This document shows, piece after piece, positions 4,709 through 51,661 of a stretch of DNA of 55,702 nucleotides (positions within the stretch are counted from its first letter, which is position 1; each line of letters starts with the position of its first letter). A program made the translations under genes and the position numbers. The stretch is taken from positions 1 to 55,702 of the forward strand of contig MFCA01000002.1 of NCBI GenBank assembly GCA_001775095.1. Direction: 5' to 3'. The DNA is from Candidatus Curtissbacteria bacterium RIFOXYA1_FULL_41_14. GTDB lineage: Bacteria > Patescibacteriota > Microgenomatia > Curtissbacterales > GWA2-41-24. Below the pieces are notes generated by a model. The model ran no database searches, was not told the origin of the DNA, and saw nothing but the letters and a program-made list of their open reading frames with translations.

Positions 4709-4903
4709 ATGAAACAAAAAACCAAAAAGGCGGCAGCCAAAAGATTTAAAATTACGCCAAAAGGAAAAATTTTAAGAGGACGCCAAATGGCAGGCCATCT
4801 TAAGATGGCGAAAACAAAAAGTGCCAAAACACGGTATAAGAGGAAGGCCTTTGTCTCTAAACCTGAGAAGAGAAGGATAGAAAGGCTAATGCCGTATAAT
4901 TAA
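4709..4903 (+). CDS. rpmI: Ribosomal protein L35
   Basis: 64-aa basic protein ...AAAKRFKITPKGKILRGRQMAGHL... with the usual position after infC. Confidence 0.93.
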   Translation: MKQKTKKAAAKRFKITPKGKILRGRQMAGHLKMAKTKSAKTRYKRKAFVSKPEKRRIERLMPYN

Positions 4904-4905
4904 AA

Positions 4906-5130
4906 ATCCTAAACTCTAAATTCTAAATCCTAAATAAATCCAAATGAGGTAAAATACAAAATTCAAAACAGGAGGATAACTATATTGTTCGAGCCCTTCG
5001 TCGAAACTCAGGGCGAGAACTAAAACTTCTCACTTTGTTCGAAGACTAAAAGGGTTTTAACTGACTATCTTTCTTTTGAACATTTGAATTTTGAAATTGT
5101 TTAGAGTTTAGAATTTAGAATTTAGAATTT
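4906..5130. repeat. Composite nested palindrome: heptamer-type arms flanking a GC-richer core hairpin
   Basis: Left arm atcctaaactctaaattctaaatcc...caaaattcaaaaca. Right arm ttttgaacatttgaattttgaaattgtttagagtttagaatttagaatttagaattt. Core ttgttcgagccc...gggcgagaac recurs at 37925-38010 and 52862-52963. Confidence 0.8.
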
Positions 5131-5624: not shown

Positions 5625-6647
5625 ATGGACAAAGAATTAAAAGAATTATTGACCCATGCCCGCGCAAGAATCGGCTCTGTCAATACCACCAAAGATCTCG
5701 ATCAGGTCTACATTGAAATCTTTGGCAAAAGCGGCGAGTTCACAACTCTTACCAAACAACTTGGACAAGTTCCTAAATCAAAAAGACCAAAAATCGGTCA
5801 GCTTCTCAATGAAGCAAAAAAGGAAATAGAGCAACATCTTGAAAAAAAGCGTTCAGCGTTAAGCGCTGGGCGTTCAGCAACTCCTATTGATATTACAGCC
5901 CCCGGCGAAAAGACCAAAATCGGCCACCTTCATCTCGTTTCCCAGGCAATCGAAGAAATCGTCTCCATTTTTAAACAGCTTGGGTTCTCACTTCAAAGTT
6001 ACCCGGAAGTCGAATGGGACTGGTATGCCTTTGAAACTTTAAATATGCCCAAGAACCATCCTGCCAGAGACGATTGGGAAACATTTTTTATAAAATCCAA
6101 ACCTCATCCTAATTTAGGAAATCAAGTATTGACCCCGCACACCTCAAACGGCCAGGTTAGAGAAATGCTAAGAGTCAAAACACCTCCAATTAGAATGCTC
6201 AACATTGCCCGTTGCTACCGAAGACAAATTGATATTTCACATACGCCAATGTTTCATCAATTTGAAGGCCTTTTGGTTGACAAAAATGTTTCGATTCCGG
6301 ATCTTAAGGGTACTTTTGATTATTTCACCACCAGATTCTTTGGTCCCGAACGAGTTACCAGATTAAGACAACATCATTTCCGTTTCACCGAACCATCATT
6401 TGAAGTTGACGTCACTTGTGGGGTTTGTATGGGACGTGGCTGCCGATTCTGCAAATCCGGCTGGGTGGAACTTGGAGGATCCGGTATGGTGCATCCGAGA
6501 GTCCTAAGAGCAGGCAAAATCGACCCTGAAGTCTATAGCGGTTTTGCTTTTGGCTGGGGAATCGAAAGAACAATTGCTATGAAAACCAACATAGGCGACA
6601 TCAGACTTTTGTACCAAAATGATATTAGGTTCTTAGAACAGTTCTGA
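5625..6647 (+). CDS. pheS: Phenylalanyl-tRNA synthetase alpha subunit
   Basis: HPARD..(D)TFF, class II motifs FRFTEPS.E.D, GFAFG.G.ER. pheT follows. Confidence 0.95.
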   Translation: MDKELKELLTHARARIGSVNTTKDLDQVYIEIFGKSGEFTTLTKQLGQVPKSKRPKIGQLLNEAKKEIEQHLEKKRSALSAGRSATPIDITAPGEKTKIGHLHLVSQAIEEIVSIFKQLGFSLQSYPEVEWDWYAFETLNMPKNHPARDDWETFFIKSKPHPNLGNQVLTPHTSNGQVREMLRVKTPPIRMLNIARCYRRQIDISHTPMFHQFEGLLVDKNVSIPDLKGTFDYFTTRFFGPERVTRLRQHHFRFTEPSFEVDVTCGVCMGRGCRFCKSGWVELGGSGMVHPRVLRAGKIDPEVYSGFAFGWGIERTIAMKTNIGDIRLLYQNDIRFLEQF

Positions 6648-6791: not shown

Positions 6792-8837
6792 ATGAACATA
6801 CGTATTCCTGCATCCTGGCTGCGAGAATATCTAAAAACAGATATTGCTCTCAAAACTATTGCCAACCATCTTTCGCTGGCTGGTCCAGCGGTCGAAAAAA
6901 TCCAAAAAGTCGAAAACGACTATCTTCTGGATATCGAAGTGACCAGTAATCGCATTGATGCCTTCTCAGTTTTTGGTCTGGCAAGAGAAACTCACGCTAT
7001 TCTAAAAGGGAATAATTTAAAATCAGAACTTGTCAAACCCAAAGGCTTAAATCTTGTGCTCGAACCTGATACCGCAAGTCCTTTAACACTGGATGTCATT
7101 ATCAAAAATCGGAGCCTGTGTCCTCGATTCACTGCAATCATCATTGATAATGTCAAAATTAAACCCTCACCGGCATTTATAAGAAACCGCCTGGAAAAAT
7201 CGGGCATCAGGTCTATAAACAATATTGTTGATATCTCCAATTACATCATGCTTGAACTCGGCCAACCAATGCATACCTTTGACTTTGACAAAATTAAAGG
7301 CGGCAAAATGATTCTCCGTGCAGCCATTGAGGAAGAAAAAATTATCACTCTCGATGGACAAACAAGAAAAATTCCGGCAGGCGCCATAGTTATCGAAGAC
7401 GAGAAAAGGCTTATCGACCTTTGCGGTATCATGGGCGGCGCAAATTCCCAAATCTCCAAAAGAACGAAAAGGGTCGTCCTCTTTGTTCAGGCTTATGATC
7501 CTTTGACCATTCGTAAAACTACCCAGAATCTTGCATTCCGAACAGAGGCAGCAGCCAGGTTCGAAAAAGGAATCGACTTGGAAGGAATTATCCCGTCACT
7601 TTCCCGGGCAGCTTACCTTGCCAAGTTAACAGCGGGTGCAAAAATAGCCTCGGAATTAGTCGACATTGCCAATTATAAGAAGGAACAAAAACCAGTTATC
7701 TTAAATCTGGCAAAGCTTGCTTCTTACCTCAATGTGAAGATACAACCTGAAAAGGCTGCAAGAATCCTTGGGCTTCTTGGTTTTGATGTAAAAACAACAG
7801 CCCAGACTATTACTGCTCAAGCTCCAAGTTGGCGCACAAATGATGTAGAAGATGATGTCGATCTAATTGAGGAAATTGCCCGAATCTACGGTTACCACAA
7901 TCTTTCGTCAAAGCTGCCCAAAGGACAAATTCCTCAAGAGATAAATATCAGTGATCTGGAAAGCGTAATTGATCTTAAAAGGGCTCTTAAGTTTTTAGGA
8001 CTGACCGAAGTTATGACCTATTCGATAATATCTAAAGACCTGCTTAGTCTCGCCCAAGTTGGAGAAAATGAAGCAGTCAAGCTAACTAATCCCCTAACAG
8101 ACCAGTGGCAATTTATGAGGTCAACAATTCTCATATCTTTGGCTCAAATTATTACCAGTAATCAGAATCTACAAAAAAATATGGAAATATTCGAAGTTGC
8201 TAAAACCTACCAGAAAAAAGAGGGTGATTTGCCAAAACAGGATTTAACACTCGCCGTTGCACTCGATAATGCTAATTTTTATCAAATTAAAGGGATTGTT
8301 GAAAACATCTTTGAGATTCTTGCGCGTGATATTAAATTTCAAAAACTGACCGGCAATAATCCACTTTTTGAAAAAGAAAATTCGGCCCAAGTTAAAATAG
8401 GGGATACAGTTGTTGGTACTTTGGGGATTTTAAGTTCGCAAGTCACCGACTATTTTAAAAATGAAAATCCAGTCGCAGCAGTCGAAATAAATCTGTCAGC
8501 AGTCTACAGTCTACCGACTACAGCTAAATCATTTAGGCCGATCCCTAAATACCCGTCGGTTATTGAGGATATCTCGGCTGTATTTGAAGTTGAAACCGCA
8601 CTTGCGGAAATTGTATCTGCAATAAAAGAATCAGGTAAACCCCTAGTTAATAAAGTCGAGGTAATCGACGTTTATCAGAATGAGAAAATCGGGACAGATA
8701 AAAAGTCCGTGACCCTGCGTCTGTCCTATCAAAAATCATCAGGCACACCTACTCAAGAAAAAGTTACTCAGATAAGAAACAAGGTAATTTCCTCCCTTGA
8801 AAAAACTCTTAAAGCAAAAGTCCGAACTTCCACTTGA
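6792..8837 (+). CDS. pheT: Phenylalanyl-tRNA synthetase beta subunit (short form without the OB-fold tRNA-binding domain)
   Basis: The N-terminal B1 motif WLREYL runs directly into DIEVTSNRIDAFSVFGLARE. B3/4, B5 and FDX-ACB-like C-terminal regions are present. 681 aa. Confidence 0.93.
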   Translation: MNIRIPASWLREYLKTDIALKTIANHLSLAGPAVEKIQKVENDYLLDIEVTSNRIDAFSVFGLARETHAILKGNNLKSELVKPKGLNLVLEPDTASPLTLDVIIKNRSLCPRFTAIIIDNVKIKPSPAFIRNRLEKSGIRSINNIVDISNYIMLELGQPMHTFDFDKIKGGKMILRAAIEEEKIITLDGQTRKIPAGAIVIEDEKRLIDLCGIMGGANSQISKRTKRVVLFVQAYDPLTIRKTTQNLAFRTEAAARFEKGIDLEGIIPSLSRAAYLAKLTAGAKIASELVDIANYKKEQKPVILNLAKLASYLNVKIQPEKAARILGLLGFDVKTTAQTITAQAPSWRTNDVEDDVDLIEEIARIYGYHNLSSKLPKGQIPQEINISDLESVIDLKRALKFLGLTEVMTYSIISKDLLSLAQVGENEAVKLTNPLTDQWQFMRSTILISLAQIITSNQNLQKNMEIFEVAKTYQKKEGDLPKQDLTLAVALDNANFYQIKGIVENIFEILARDIKFQKLTGNNPLFEKENSAQVKIGDTVVGTLGILSSQVTDYFKNENPVAAVEINLSAVYSLPTTAKSFRPIPKYPSVIEDISAVFEVETALAEIVSAIKESGKPLVNKVEVIDVYQNEKIGTDKKSVTLRLSYQKSSGTPTQEKVTQIRNKVISSLEKTLKAKVRTST

Positions 8838-21016: not shown

Positions 21017-22039
21017 TTATCTTCTAAGAGCAAGCCCGGTGGAAACACAATAAAAGCTTCCTTGTCCGGGAAGTTTTAATACCACGCCCTCCTTTACAAA
21101 ATCGGCCCATGAATCTCCCAAGGAAACTTCTAAACTTGTTCTCTGCGCCAAAAATTCCGAAAGCCCCGGCAAGTAAGCCCCGCCACCACACATTACTATA
21201 CGACCTATCTGGGAATTTTCAACATGACTGTGCGCAAATTCGATTGCTTTAGTAATTTCGGAAATCAAAATATCCAAAATTGGTTTTAAAACCGCCGCCA
21301 CCTTCCCAGAAAGTTTATCCTCCATAATTCCATAGGTTTGCTTATATTCTTCAGCCTGACTTTGGGGCAAGTTAAATTCAGCCATTATTGCTTTAGTTAA
21401 AGTTATGCCGCCAGCCGCAATAGATCTGGTAAAAAGAACGTTACCCTCATATGCCATAACCAGTTCACTCGAGAACGCTCCCAAGGAAACGATTATCGTA
21501 GGCGGATCTTGTGGTTTAGTCAAAGCTCTGGTTAAAGCAATTGACTCAGTTTCCAGACTTTCAGGCCTTAAAGTGGCATTTCTAACAACATCCAAATACT
21601 TTCTAATAACTCTCTTGGGTGAAGCGATTAAAAGAACATCCATCTTAGCCCCGTTTGTGGCGTTTTGGGGGCGTGAGACCACCTTGTACTGCAAAAAAAC
21701 ATCTTTTATGGGTAAGGGAATATATTGCTCTGCTTCCCAATTAATAGCGGCAGCAAGTTCCTTATCCGTTAGATAGGGGAGCTGAATTAATCTGGCTACT
21801 ACTTGCGACTCGATGAGAGAAACAACGCATTTGTCTGTAGTAATTTTTGCCTGATTGACACAATTTCGAATAGCTTCGGACAGATTCTTTAAGTCAATCG
21901 GAGACTCTGACTGCATTCCGCCTGGAGGAGTCTTCAAACTGCCGGCAGCCAGCAGTCTCTTTTTATCATTCCTAACTTCAACCTGTACAACTTTAATAAA
22001 TGATCTTCCGATATCTAAACCAAATATATTAGCGGCCAT
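21017..22039 (-). CDS. pilM: Type IV pilus assembly protein PilM (actin-like ATPase fold)
   Basis: FGLDIGRSFIKVVQV... and a length and architecture typical of PilM. pilN and pilO follow. Confidence 0.88.
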   Translation of the reverse strand: MAANIFGLDIGRSFIKVVQVEVRNDKKRLLAAGSLKTPPGGMQSESPIDLKNLSEAIRNCVNQAKITTDKCVVSLIESQVVARLIQLPYLTDKELAAAINWEAEQYIPLPIKDVFLQYKVVSRPQNATNGAKMDVLLIASPKRVIRKYLDVVRNATLRPESLETESIALTRALTKPQDPPTIIVSLGAFSSELVMAYEGNVLFTRSIAAGGITLTKAIMAEFNLPQSQAEEYKQTYGIMEDKLSGKVAAVLKPILDILISEITKAIEFAHSHVENSQIGRIVMCGGGAYLPGLSEFLAQRTSLEVSLGDSWADFVKEGVVLKLPGQGSFYCVSTGLALRR

Positions 22040-44343: not shown

Positions 44344-45558
44344 ATGCAAAATAAAAAAGCAAGATTAATTCTCGAAGACGGCACCATCTTTAAAGGTAAT
44401 GCAGCCGGCAGTCAGACCTCTTCAGCAGGCGAAGTAGTTTTTGCAACAGGCATGGTCGGTTATGATTTATCGCTTACCGACCCTTCTTACGCCGGCCAGA
44501 TATTAACCTTCACATACCCTTTAATCGGTAATTGGGGTGTACCGCCAAAAGAGTTTTGGGAATCGGATAAAATCCAAGTTGCTGGTCTTGTAGTCAGCGA
44601 CTTAACTACAAAACCCAGCCATTGGCAATCGCAACAAACTCTTGATGAATGGCTGAAAGAAGAAGGAGTCTCTGCAATTTTTGGTATAGATACAAGACTC
44701 TTGACCCAAAAATTACGAGATAGGGGAGTAATGCTGGGTAAAATTGTAGTTGAGGATCAGGATATCGAATTTTATGATCCGAATGCCGAAAATCTTGTCG
44801 CCAAAGTTTCGCCGAAAGAACCAAAAATCCTCAAATCCGAAATCCGAAATCCGAAATCCGAAATCCGGGTCGGCCTATTAAATTGTGGAGCGAAAAGAAA
44901 TATCCTGCGCAGTCTTCTTGCTCGAGGAGTAACCGTTTATGATCTCCCATGGAATTTCGATCCGTTCGTTTCGGACGGGTGGCAGTCGTGGAAAGGTTCC
45001 CGACAGCGCGGACCCCGCACTTTTACAAATTCTGATCAAAATCACAAATATCAAACCAACCTAAAAGTGCGGGGGAGCACTGACGGGAAGGAAACGACTG
45101 ACAGGACCCGTCCGGAATTCCCCAAACTTGACGGCCTGGTCATTTCCAATGGTCCGGGAGACCCTAAAATGGCCAAAGAGACCATCAATATTATCAAAAA
45201 AGCTTTAAAAAAGAAGATCCCAACATTCGGAATATGTCTTGGCAACCAGCTTCTGGCTTTAGCGACCGGGGGAGATACTTACAAATTAAAATTCGGCCAT
45301 CGGGCACAAAATCAACCGACTATTCAAGCCGGAACCAAACGCTGCTACATCACCACTCAAAATCATGGCTTTGCGGTCGACGAGAAAAAAATGCCAAAAG
45401 GCTTTAAGAGATGGTTTCATAATGCTAACGATAATACTAATGAGGGAATAATCCATGAGAATCTCTCATTTTTTTCCGTCCAATTCCATCCGGAAGCCAG
45501 TCCCGGGCCAACAGATACCGAATGGCTCTTTGATTACTTTTTGGAGAAATTTAAATGA
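44344..45558 (+). CDS. carA: Carbamoyl-phosphate synthase small (glutaminase) subunit, carrying two in-frame repeat insertions
   Basis: ARLILEDGTIFKG, GAKRNILR, SNGPGDP, GICLGNQLL, VQFHPEA. Confidence 0.95.
   Translation: MQNKKARLILEDGTIFKGNAAGSQTSSAGEVVFATGMVGYDLSLTDPSYAGQILTFTYPLIGNWGVPPKEFWESDKIQVAGLVVSDLTTKPSHWQSQQTLDEWLKEEGVSAIFGIDTRLLTQKLRDRGVMLGKIVVEDQDIEFYDPNAENLVAKVSPKEPKILKSEIRNPKSEIRVGLLNCGAKRNILRSLLARGVTVYDLPWNFDPFVSDGWQSWKGSRQRGPRTFTNSDQNHKYQTNLKVRGSTDGKETTDRTRPEFPKLDGLVISNGPGDPKMAKETINIIKKALKKKIPTFGICLGNQLLALATGGDTYKLKFGHRAQNQPTIQAGTKRCYITTQNHGFAVDEKKMPKGFKRWFHNANDNTNEGIIHENLSFFSVQFHPEASPGPTDTEWLFDYFLEKFK
44833..44867. repeat. Heptanucleotide array (aaatccg x5) in frame inside carA
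   Basis: Five perfect units plus a degenerate unit at 44825-32. Translated as LKSEIRNPKSEIR. Confidence 0.95.
44971..45116. repeat. GC-rich ~146-nt imperfect palindrome in frame inside carA
   Basis: The left arm tcggacgggtggcagtcgtggaaaggttcccgacagcgcggaccccgcacttttac pairs with the right arm ctaaaagtgcgggggagcactgacgggaaggaaacgactgacaggacccgtccgga. Confidence 0.9.
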
Positions 45559-48500
45559 GAAAAATCCTTCTTCTTGGATCCGGAGCTTTAAAAATCGGCC
45601 AAGCCGGCGAGTTTGATTATTCCGGATCGCAGGCAATTAAAGCTCTTAAGGAGGAAGAAATTAAGGTAATTTTAATTAACCCAAATATCGCCACAGTCCA
45701 AACATCCGAAGGCTTCGCAGACCAAGTCTATTTCTTACCTGTTGAAACACACTTCGTCAAAGAAATCATCAAGAAAGAAAGACCCGAAGGTATTATTCTT
45801 TCGTTTGGAGGACAAACCGCCTTAAATTGCGCTCTGGAACTTGCAAAATTAAGAATACTAGAAAAATATCGAGTTAAAGTTCTAGGGACCCAAATAGACA
45901 CAATTGAAAAAACCGAGGATAGGGAACTTTTCAATGAAACTTTGAGAAAAATTGGTCTGTCAATTCCAAAAAGTGTTGCGTGTAAAAGTTTAAGCCAGGC
46001 GGAAATTGCTATCGGCAAAATCGGTTATCCTGTTATCGCGCGATGCGGTTTTTCTTTAGGAGGTCAGGATTCACAAGTCATTTTCAATAATACTCAGCTG
46101 AAAGAAGCTGTCATCAGGGCTCTTTCCAAATCTCCACAAGTTCTAATTGAAGAATACTTAGAAGGCTGGAAAGAAGTGGAGTACGATGTAGTCAGAGACA
46201 AGTATGACAACTGTATTACTGTCTGCAACATGGAAAATGTCGATCCGATGGGTATTCACACCGGCGAATCAATCGTTGTCGCTCCTTCGCAAACTCTGAA
46301 TAATTTTGAATATCATAAGCTTCGGGAAATCGCCATCAAAGTGATCCGTCACCTAAAAATAGTCGGGGAGTGCAATATTCAGTTTGCTCTAAACCCCCGT
46401 CCGACAAACTCTAAATCCGAAATCCTAAATTCTAAACAATCTCAAAATCCAAATGACCTAAATTCAAAACGTTTTGAGCATTTGAATTTAGAAAATTCGG
46501 ATTTGTTTAGAAATTCGGATTTAGAAATTAGAAATTACCTCGATTATAGAATTATCGAGGTTAACGCTCGTCTTTCTCGAAGTTCTGCCCTGGCTTCGAA
46601 AGCAACCGGTTATCCATTGGCTTATATAGCAGCCAAATTGGCACTCGGATATTCGCTGACCGAACTTAAAAATACCGTTACAAAAAAAACCATAGCCTGC
46701 TTTGAACCTGCCCTCGATTATCTGGTTGTCAAAATTCCACGCTGGGATCTGGGTAAATTTCTAAAAAGCGAAACGCAAATCGGACCCTCTATGCAATCTG
46801 TGGGAGAAGTAATGGCAGTAGGACGCAAATTCGAAGAAGCAATTCAGAAAGCAATCCGCATGCTTGATATCGGACTCGAAGGTATTTTGGACAAACGCGC
46901 CCCAATCTCCAAGTATCAAAAACCCACCCCCTGGCGAATTTTCTCCGTGGCAAAAAGTCTGGCGGCCGGAGAGGCTGTCGACAAAATTTACAAGGCAACC
47001 GGCATCGACCCATTTTTTCTGGAAAAGATCAAAAACATAGTAGAGTTTGAAAAAAATATTAAAGCCTGTGATACTCGTGATACTCTTACTACCCGTGATA
47101 CTCTTCTTTTAGCCAAGCAACTTGGATTCTCTGATAAACGATTGGCAAAACTTACAAATTCAGCTGAGGAAAAGATTAGGAAACTGCGAAAAAAATATGG
47201 CATCTATCCGAAAGTCAAGCAAATTGACACTCTAGCTGCCGAATACCCGGCCCAGACGAATTACCTCTACCTTACATACAATGGAGAATCGGATGATATA
47301 AATTCGAAATCCAAAGCACGAAATTCGAAACAATATCAAATTTCAAATAACAAAAATTTTAAACGTTTTGAACATTTGAATTTAGAGAATTCGGATTCGT
47401 TTAGAAATTCGAAATACGAGAGCGTATTTTCGGAAAACCGAAAAGTGGAAATTAGAAATTCCCAAAACGATCGCAAGGTGATCGTTTTGGGATCTGGTCC
47501 TTACCGCATTGGGTCTTCCGTTGAATTTGACTGGTGCTCGGTAACATGCACCCAGACCGCTTCAAAAAATAACCTCTCCACAATAATTGTAAACTGCAAC
47601 CCGGAAACAGTCTCTACTGATTACGACATGGCCGACAGGCTTTATTTCGAAGAACTCTCTTTGGAAACTGTTCTGGAAATTTACGAAAGGGAGAAACCCT
47701 TTGGAATAATTCTCTCGATGGGTGGCCAAACTCCCAATAACCTGGCTACAAGTCTTTCTAAAAACGGAGTCAACATTCTGGGTACTAAATCAACTTCTAT
47801 CGATCAGGCAGAAGATCGAAATAAATTCTCAAACCTTTGCGATAAACTGTCAATAGACCAACCGGTCTGGGCTAAATTAAAAAATCTAAAAGAAGCTCTC
47901 ACTTTTGCCGAAAAAATCGGCTATCCGGTTCTAATCAGACCTTCCTACGTTCTTTCCGGAGCAGCTATGAACGTCGCATTCAGTTCTGAAGATCTCGCGA
48001 TATATCTTAAGTTAGCCTCCCGTATCTCTAAGGAATATCCTGTTGTGATCTCAAAATATTACGAGGAGGCTAAAGAGATCGAAATTGACGCAGTTGCGCA
48101 AGAAGGCCAGATTCTATGTTCTGCGATTTCCGAGCACGTTGAAAATGCCGGAGTCCACTCGGGAGACTCAACCATGGTTTTACCTGCTCAAAAACTCTAC
48201 CTCAAAACGGTTACTCAAATCGAAAATATCGCCCAAGAAATTGCCAAAAATTTAAAAATTACGGGCCCTTTTAACATCCAATTTTTGGCAAAAAATAATC
48301 ACGTCATGGTGATTGAATGCAATCTGCGCGCATCCCGAAGTTTTCCGTTTGTTTCCAAAGTAACCGGAGTCAACTTCATAGAGGTTGCAACAAATGCAAT
48401 CCTTAACATTAACCAAATACCAAATACTAAATACCAGATACTAGACTATGTCGGCGTCAAAGCTCCCCAGTTTTCTTTTTCCCGTATTAAAGGTGCTGAT

Positions 48501-51549: not shown

Positions 51550-51661
51550 GACTTGCCTGCCGGCAGGTAGGTTTCCTTACAAAACCCTTACTTCTTTTTT
51601 ATCTCCTTTTAAATTTAAGGTAGTAAAATAATAGTCTTAAAAATTTAAAAAGGAGGTGAAA

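Follow-up and report, generated by a model that had tools for sequence, protein, structure and literature searches.

In Rickettsia, a repeat of ~150 bp, the Rickettsia palindromic element (RPE), is known to occur in ten families (RPE-1 to RPE-10) and to lie in frame within unrelated metabolic genes (PMC10969869, citing Ogata et al. 2000). [quoted passage not shown] Repetitive extragenic palindromes (REPs), which carry GTAG or CGTC tags, are by definition found outside genes (PMC3733652). The element considered here is a GC-rich hairpin that lies in frame within carA, the gene for the small subunit of carbamoyl-phosphate synthase (CPSase), of Candidatus Curtissbacteria bacterium RIFOXYA1_FULL_41_14; the window referred to below is the whole stretch that was analysed, 55,702 nt of contig MFCA01000002.1. 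Mobile GC-rich inserts are likewise found in mitochondrial protein genes, as exemplified by the GC clusters of yeast, the double-hairpin elements of Allomyces and the 'byps' of Magnusiomyces. The carA hairpin belongs to a non-coding palindromic repeat family that is present in many copies in Microgenomates, members of the Candidate Phyla Radiation (CPR), and that probably behaves like RPE or intragenic MITEs. A literature search found no description of such a family in CPR bacteria or Patescibacteria, which is an absence of evidence only, and the family is apparently undescribed so far.

In the window the element forms an imperfect hairpin (coordinates in Table 1), for which a repeat search gave four nested arm pairs, with arms of 57 and 56 nt and an AT-rich loop of 36 nt. 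A preliminary description, made from the sequence alone, had placed a palindrome at 44971-45116, with two 56-nt arms around a 34-nt loop, and this proved accurate to within 2-3 nt. The RNA fold of the element has an energy of -72.7 kcal/mol, compared with -46.6 +/- 4.1 in 200 dinucleotide shuffles (z -6.4), none of which folded as well; the corresponding values for the reverse strand of the element are -74.3 and z -5.7. The arms are, as had been stated, GC-richer than the host gene, with GC contents of 0.61 and 0.59 against 0.428 for carA without the element, 0.401 for the window and 0.31 for the loop, and a GC content of 0.63 is attained by only 0.16% of 57-nt windows.

The carA open reading frame (ORF) is uninterrupted across the element, which codes for CarA residues ~209-257, and of the six frames of this copy none but that in use is open. 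In most of 120 orthologues the corresponding segment reads 'LPWNxDPF-ENNLP-IDG', with a loop of ~5 residues, and the alignment confirms that window CarA, assigned to protein cluster P0001 (NCBI name: hypothetical protein, 'Candidatus Curtissbacteria bacterium RIFCSPHIGHO2_01_FULL_34_..'), gains ~49 residues at this loop of the glutaminase domain, in frame and free of stops, in agreement with the preliminary description. The alignments with human CPS1 and E. coli CarA are interrupted exactly at query residues 206/261, and solved CPSase structures have ~4-15 residues at the position of the insert. In an AlphaFold2 model of CarA the predicted local distance difference test score is below 50 for residues 221-251 and above 90 for the flanking strands (196-201 and 264-267), which suggests that the insert may form a disordered loop.

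The dispersal of the family was followed with a search pattern of 24 fixed bases from the core of the 3' arm, in which the stem positions were left free. This pattern matched 87 stretches in species-representative contigs (one genome per species), up to ~8 of them from the contigs of a single assembly, and at least 118 stretches in metagenomes, the counts for the metagenome set being throughout those among the matches listed. An alignment of 81 copies (A2) was the source of a covariance model (R1), which gave 103 matches in 709 kb of genome-set loci, including copies missed by the pattern, and 108 matches in the metagenome-set loci; the window copy matches it over its full length (44965-45121, 102.3 bits, E 1e-23), the '+' strand of the window being the '+' (model) strand of the family. 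Carrier genomes belong to Curtissbacteria, Levybacteria, Roizmanbacteria, WWE3 and unnamed Patescibacteria. Many further copies, as foreseen in the preliminary description, thus exist among related genomes and metagenomes, a single genome having several, and they lie in many unrelated genes as well as in intergenic DNA. That the family is distinct from the palindromic insertions of carB was also correctly anticipated, the model finding a single copy in the window and none at the carB palindromes.

No gathering-level match to Rfam 15 was obtained in the window except for one tRNA elsewhere, with only chance-level scores (<=21 bits) on 44800-45300. Peptides from four frames gave no match, at E up to 10, to Pfam or to NCBIfam, which holds domain models for RPE. 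The pattern had no match in the viral contigs of IMG/VR, where there was no sign of a phage vector. Some carrier records are labelled Gammaproteobacteria (several of them 'uncultured'), Chlamydiae (one) or Nanoarchaeia (L026, L064 and L080; DATBWR01; L numbers denote loci). The contigs labelled 'Nanoarchaeia' code for MurT/GatD, RecO and a bacterial-type GlyRS, and given MurT/GatD and RecO this label is probably wrong; the taxonomic labels of some of the carrier metagenome-assembled genomes look mistaken.

The repeat unit, ~70-140 nt long, is a strand-asymmetric stem-loop. Read inward from its ends it consists of an outer stem, GGGTGGC, a covarying stem P2, the loop GGAAGGG, CTCCCGACAGCGCGCAG, an apical module that is free, CGAGCACTGGCGGGAG, the loop GGAAAC, the second side of P2 (P2'), GACAGGACCC and the closing side of the outer stem. 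The outer stem is variable and short, with ~1-5 covarying base pairs beyond GGGT/ACCC; GGGT/ACCC itself is invariant in all 81 copies, the next pair outward being G-C in 37 and C-G in 33, and together with the covarying outer stem it provides the family with terminal inverted repeats. Inside GGGT/ACCC lies an asymmetric loop, in which GG faces ACAGG. P2 is paired in 92-94% of cells and six of its seven pairs are changed on both sides (two independent sets), and 39 distinct 5-mers occur among the 81 copies. It is followed by the purine-rich loops (GGAAGGG facing GGAA), by helix P3 (CTCCCGACAG/CTGGCGGGAG), with a conserved A.G mismatch, and by a short helix P4. The non-canonical position conserved in P3/P4 (columns 42/125) is unpaired in 75 of the 81 copies, and is A.A in the window copy and A.G in the consensus. 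The apical module, of ~10-85 nt, is free in both sequence and length; an apical stem of the type CCCCGC...GCGGGG, resembling that of the window, is found in L089 and L032.

The covariation score of A2 is 0.319, compared with 0.126 in shuffled alignments (0 of 500 as high) and at most 0.10 when the partners were slid, and it was replicated in the independent metagenome set (0.311). Since the left arm was absent from the search pattern, its conservation is not an artefact of the search. On the reverse strand of the window the model reached only 8.9 bits, against 102 on the '+' strand, and the family is therefore strand-asymmetric.

Two further features of the copies were seen. In L090 (CTTGAATTTGC...GCAAATTCAAG), L034, L014, L011, L047 and L067 the outer stem extends 7-11 perfectly complementary bases into the flank, which is far above chance and suggests that the flank was duplicated in inverted orientation or that the palindrome has grown. 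Small GC palindromes, CCTGCCGGCAGG or (C)CTGCCGGCAG(G), are nested inside some copies (L013, L031, L034 and L042).

In the genome set 50 of the 88 copies lie within long ORFs, across 30 gene families, all of them ordinary housekeeping genes: CarA, CarB, 6PGDH, CysRS, LeuRS, ArgRS, TopA, DnaX/HolB, RecJ, UvrD, RadA, Fpg, ATP-dependent DNA ligase, RplA, TGT, Map, Mur ligases, transketolase, a P-type ATPase, ComEC, glycosyltransferases and others. The copies within ORFs are always stop-free, and about three-quarters of them are read in one orientation and frame, four of the six frames being used. In the genomes 33 of the 50 are read in '-' frame 2, none in '-'0 or '-'1, and 17 in the three '+' frames; in the metagenomes, with 48 copies within ORFs, the corresponding numbers are 41, 0 and 7. 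The peptide read in '-' frame 2 is of the form GPVSxFPPASAR...LRAVGNPSSxATP. The frame of the window copy, '+'0, is among the rarest classes. The length of the core is also constrained, being 2 mod 3 in 32 of 33 (genomes) and 41 of 41 (metagenomes) of the '-'2 copies; outside long ORFs the core lengths are distributed modulo 3 as 13:7:7 and 12:6:4, respectively. Were the insert excised from the mRNA or bypassed in translation, frame and length constraints of this kind would serve no purpose, so that, judging from the sequences, the element is most likely translated.

The same carA site in other genomes is informative. Insertions that had been typed as 'A' (window, L001 and L003), 'B' (L005-L007) and 'E' (L096, which scores 65.5 bits with the family model) are the same hairpin, with the common core GGGTGGC...GGAAGGG...AGCGCG...GAGCACT...GGGA..GAA...GACAGGACCC and with stems that differ by compensating changes. 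The hairpin is read at this site in three frames, giving GWQSWKGS../..GSTDGKETTDRTR, RGVAVVEGFPLAR../..RALMGRKPLTGP (RGVAVVEGFP..) and ..REGNWRQDP; one DNA hairpin read in three frames leaves no protein-level conservation, so that selection is on the nucleic acid and on an open frame, not on the peptide. The preliminary description had named, as the outcome that would speak against a repeat, an insertion conserved at the protein level in relatives and lacking copies elsewhere; what those relatives with an insertion at this site carry is the hairpin in different frames. In L004 (2396-2461) carA contains an in-frame deletion scar, in which just the two ends of the element remain and where the 5' end TCTCACGGGTGGCAGTC is fused to the 3' flank CGAGAAAATTAAT and SHGWQSEK is encoded. 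In a neighbour-joining tree of CarA, filled sites are interspersed among empty ones, which points to repeated gain and loss at this site, such a tree being weak evidence at this divergence.

Hairpins of two other types occur at the same carA site. Type C, present in 9 of the 120 orthologues, is represented by L095 (1781-1834), with arms CACTCCCGGAGTG...CACTCCGGGAGTG, and encodes HTPGV..HTPGV; type D is found in L097 (~2130-2250, -46 kcal/mol). Both are unrelated to the GC-rich family and both are from Curtissbacteria.

On the explanation that is favoured here, copies would land or persist both between and within genes. Those surviving within genes would keep the frame, remain stop-free and add a harmless hydrophilic peptide, rich in Pro, Ser and Gly, to a permissive surface loop; the carA copy would be such a survivor, transcribed and translated with its gene to yield a disordered loop of ~49 residues on the glutaminase domain. 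The hairpin would be a selfish, mobile element, whose conserved stems and loops would be recognised by a copying machinery, probably as single-stranded DNA (ssDNA).

The Microgenomates family resembles RPE in being palindromic, in its length of ~100-150 bp (149 nt for the window hairpin), in its many dispersed copies and in the small, AT-rich, host-dependent genomes in which it resides. As with RPE, its copies are inserted in frame into unrelated genes of housekeeping or metabolism, leaving these undisrupted, and are also found in non-coding DNA; the peptides that RPE add are judged to be compatible with the fold, and no transposase is known for RPE. It differs from RPE in that there is no sequence relationship (at the peptide level, with NCBIfam and Pfam) and in that the hosts belong to a different phylum. 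Further differences are that it is GC-rich, with conserved asymmetric internal loops, a paired helix of varying sequence and a swappable apical module, and that four frames are in use, three of these at one site. With MITEs it has in common that these are short, non-autonomous, hairpin-forming repeats with terminal inverted repeats, which can lie in ORFs and add peptides. MITEs, however, are defined by terminal inverted repeats, target-site duplication and a cognate insertion sequence (IS) transposase, whereas for the Microgenomates family neither a duplication nor, in the loci scanned, a cognate IS was found, and conservation spans the whole stem and not just its ends.

A likeness is also apparent to REPs and REPINs, associated with RAYT (Y1) transposases, and to IS200/IS605-derived palindrome-associated elements, which are GC-rich imperfect hairpins, recognised as ssDNA, strand-asymmetric, without target-site duplication and with bulges at conserved positions; a bias towards wobble pairs on the '+' strand of the Microgenomates family (see below) fits such single-strand folding. 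In contrast to REPs, just over half of the Microgenomates copies are intragenic and the consensus is devoid of a GTAG or CGTC tag, no Y1/RAYT gene was seen beside the copies (within the loci only), and intergenic copies show no orientation bias. The mitochondrial inserts are comparable as GC-rich hairpins that spread in AT-rich genomes, including coding sequence, and at recurrent sites. Byps, however, are skipped by the ribosome and need no frame, whereas the frame and length constraints of the Microgenomates family argue for translation, and its hosts are bacterial.

Several results weigh against a mobile repeat. No consistent target-site duplication was found at any offset, the best being 13 of 86 for 3-mers, and in ~1.3-1.4 Mb of loci, with 211 model matches, there was no sign of a mobilising enzyme, of an autonomous partner or of half-elements on either side of an ORF. 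Near-identical genomes yielded no clean pair of an empty and a filled site, so that the exact ends and the mobility of the element are putative. Within the 55.7-kb window neither seed searches nor an unfiltered covariance-model scan detected any copy other than the one in carA (n=1), and the conserved unpaired loops and A.G mismatch exceed the needs of a simple terminal-inverted-repeat element. Finally, the element of L155 (~1023-1177) is identical to that of L199/L205 at 152 of 155 positions (98%), with 400-nt flanks that are ~77% (global) or ~86% (local BLAST) identical, which could reflect either constraint in place or site-specific re-insertion.

A different relationship was seen between L151 (~6799-6887) and L199 (also L205 and L155), which share the same gene site, with flanks ~96% identical and with identical arms and P2. 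Their apical modules are unrelated, with 19 nt (CCCTCCGATTCGGAGGG) in the former and 85 nt in the latter, a difference of 66 nt that is in frame; either the modules have been swapped or these 66 nt were gained or lost as a nested segment. Like the L155/L199 pair, this hints either that copies have exchanged sequence or that re-insertion has been site-specific. In orthologous pairs generally, the identity of the whole element is mostly near that of the flanks and in a few pairs much higher. Several pairs that had seemed to combine an identical element with divergent flanks turned out to be indel artefacts of ungapped comparison.

It is possible, if unlikely, that the hairpin is a structure-specific element that seeks its sites, or a functional ssDNA or RNA module, whose asymmetric loops are bound by a dedicated protein and which homes to a small number of permissive or hairpin-prone loops of essential genes, where it takes the place of other hairpin families or nests with them. 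This would explain why at least three unrelated hairpin families occupy the same carA/carB loops, why one variant is 98% identical at one site in flanks that have diverged by 14-23%, and why apical modules are swapped between strains whose flanks are 96% identical. It would also explain why wobble-compatible mismatches favour one strand whatever the direction of transcription: on the family '+' strand G.T mismatches outnumber A.C mismatches by 60:24 in genes transcribed from the opposite strand. On the favoured explanation too, the bias suggests that the folding strand is dictated by the element rather than by the mRNA, and fits recognition as ssDNA, the evidence being modest since the 3' arm is fixed by the search pattern. 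A role of P2 as a guide to a flanking target was rejected (38 observed matches compared with 35.7 +/- 4.1 expected).

Also improbable, in our view, is a functional structured nucleic acid, i.e. an RNA motif, or an ssDNA or protein-binding signal of the host, kept in place by purifying selection for regulation, replication or recombination. Covarying stems combined with conserved unpaired loops and a conserved A.G mismatch are the classic signature of a functional fold, and the strand asymmetry of the model scores, the '+'-strand wobble bias in oppositely transcribed genes and the near-identity of the L155 and L199 elements between divergent flanks would all be accounted for. The family is spread, however, over ~30 unrelated housekeeping genes and intergenic DNA, site occupancy is patchy among close relatives, the same loops hold unrelated hairpin families and there is no Rfam match; moreover, a mobile repeat would be expected to show the same conservation if all descendants came from master copies that are transposition-competent. 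Relative to the neighbouring genes, intergenic copies have no preferred orientation (15 '++' versus 15 '--'), on which ground a terminator, a regulator or a replication-strand bias was rejected. This lack of preference, together with the unrelatedness of the host genes, makes a role in the host transcript unlikely.

That the hairpin is an intervening sequence, spliced from the mRNA or bypassed by the ribosome like the Magnusiomyces mitochondrial byp or the gap of T4 gene 60, is very improbable. A stable GC-rich hairpin within an AT-rich gene, at a site that is nearly empty in orthologues, is what such a sequence would look like, but an open frame would then be needless, and yet the copies within ORFs are stop-free, use four of the six frames and are for the most part in a single one. 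The 2 mod 3 rule for core length, relaxed in intergenic copies, likewise disagrees with removal, and no intron or ribozyme family was matched. A lineage-specific CarA loop under protein-level selection, with an incidental palindrome, is hardly tenable, for although the frame is open, the peptide hydrophilic and the motifs GW(Q/R)..K and TDRTR shared by P0002 and P0024 with the window protein, the same DNA is read at the same carA site in other frames to give unrelated peptides, which already contradicts this explanation, and is present in ~30 other gene families and intergenic DNA, while the insert is predicted to be disordered and its peptides have no Pfam or NCBIfam match.

If the carA hairpin does belong to a selfish repeat family, an RPE-like repeat would be abundant in Microgenomates and related CPR bacteria, where it would rewrite the surface loops of essential enzymes, for instance aminoacyl-tRNA synthetases, topoisomerase I, ribosomal protein L1 and CPSase. 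Gene calling, orthology assignment and phylogenomic alignment in CPR bacteria would be affected, and the inserts should be masked, because they are homologous DNA read in different frames. Structure prediction would be affected likewise, and unexplained 'lineage-specific insertions' of CPR proteins may need to be reinterpreted. The family would further offer, independently and on a much larger scale, a second natural experiment in the tolerance of proteins to selfish in-frame DNA, its clear preference for one frame could show what kinds of peptide do no harm, and its conserved fold would point to a hidden mobilisation machinery in organisms whose genomes are very small.

Table 1. Features of the carA hairpin and its host gene in the window
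Feature	Position	Strand	Description or basis
carA (CPSase small subunit, 404 aa)	44344..45558	+	ORF; homologues; Pfam CPSase_sm_chain and GATase
Whole hairpin element (outer stem, core, apical module), 149 nt	44969..45117	+	nested inverted repeats, minimum free energy structure, covariance-model match
Arm pair 1	44969-44980/45106-45117		12 nt, 92%
Arm pair 2	44980-44989/45094-45103		10 nt, 90%
Arm pair 3	44997-45009/45077-45089		13 nt, 85%
Arm pair 4 (CCCCGCACTTTTA)	45013-45025/45062-45074		13 nt, 100%
Family core, GGGTGGC... to ...GACAGGACCC, 133 nt	44977..45109	+	alignment A2, 81 copies
P1 5' side, CGGAC + GGGT	44972..44980	+	pairs with 45106-45114 (ACCC + GTCCG)
P2 5' side, CAGTCGT	44983..44989	+	pairs with 45094-45100 (ACGACTG); sequence varies, pairing kept
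Purine-rich internal loop 5' side, GGAAAGG	44990..44996	+	faces GGAA 45090-45093; near-invariant columns in A2
P3/P4 5' side (TTCCCGACAGCGC)	44997..45009	+	pairs with 45077-45089 (GCACTGACGGGAA)
Apical module: perfect 13-bp stem CCCCGCACTTTTA/TAAAAGTGCGGGG + 36-nt AT-rich loop	45013..45074	+	variable across family
3' arm, conserved: GAGCACT-GAC-GGGA-AG-GAA-ACGACT-GACAGGACCC	45075..45109	+	stretch used as search pattern

Some insertion sites are shared with other repeats. In the window carA contains, in frame, an AT-rich tandem heptamer (aaatccg x5-6) at 44826-44866 (KSEIRNPKSEIR), just 5' of 'VGLLNCGAK', and carB, directly 3' of carA, contains two AT-rich in-frame palindromes of the type aaatccgaaat/atttcggattt, at 46410-46532 and ~47320-47510. 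In carA of L077 the GC-rich hairpin is present both at the heptamer site (~5975-6114) and at the hairpin site of the window. The first carB site holds the GC-rich hairpin in L014 (ECNIQFALNP|..|DYRIIEVN), and the second holds it in L005 (12894-13033) and L006 (12914-13056) (LTYNG..|..LGSGPYRIG), in two different frames. The sharing of loops may reflect a small number of insert-tolerant loops combined with a high insertion flux, or else the targeting of hairpin-prone or already occupied sites.

Next to carA in L003 (9785-10000), an ORF of 71 amino acids with a GIY-YIG nuclease domain abuts the start of the gene; an association of such nucleases with the hairpin family was considered and rejected, only five distinct ORFs of this kind occurring in ~200 loci. 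Elsewhere in the window, the 10-mer CTGCCGGCAG occurs twice (0.02 expected), at 21939-21948, just past a response-regulator ORF, and at 51557-51566, within a pilM-like ORF. Long AT-rich inverted repeats are located at 4898-5130 (aaatcctaaactctaaattctaaat... versus ...tttagaatttagaatttagaattt; 41-nt arms, 83% complementary) and are apparently related to the AT-rich type found in carB.

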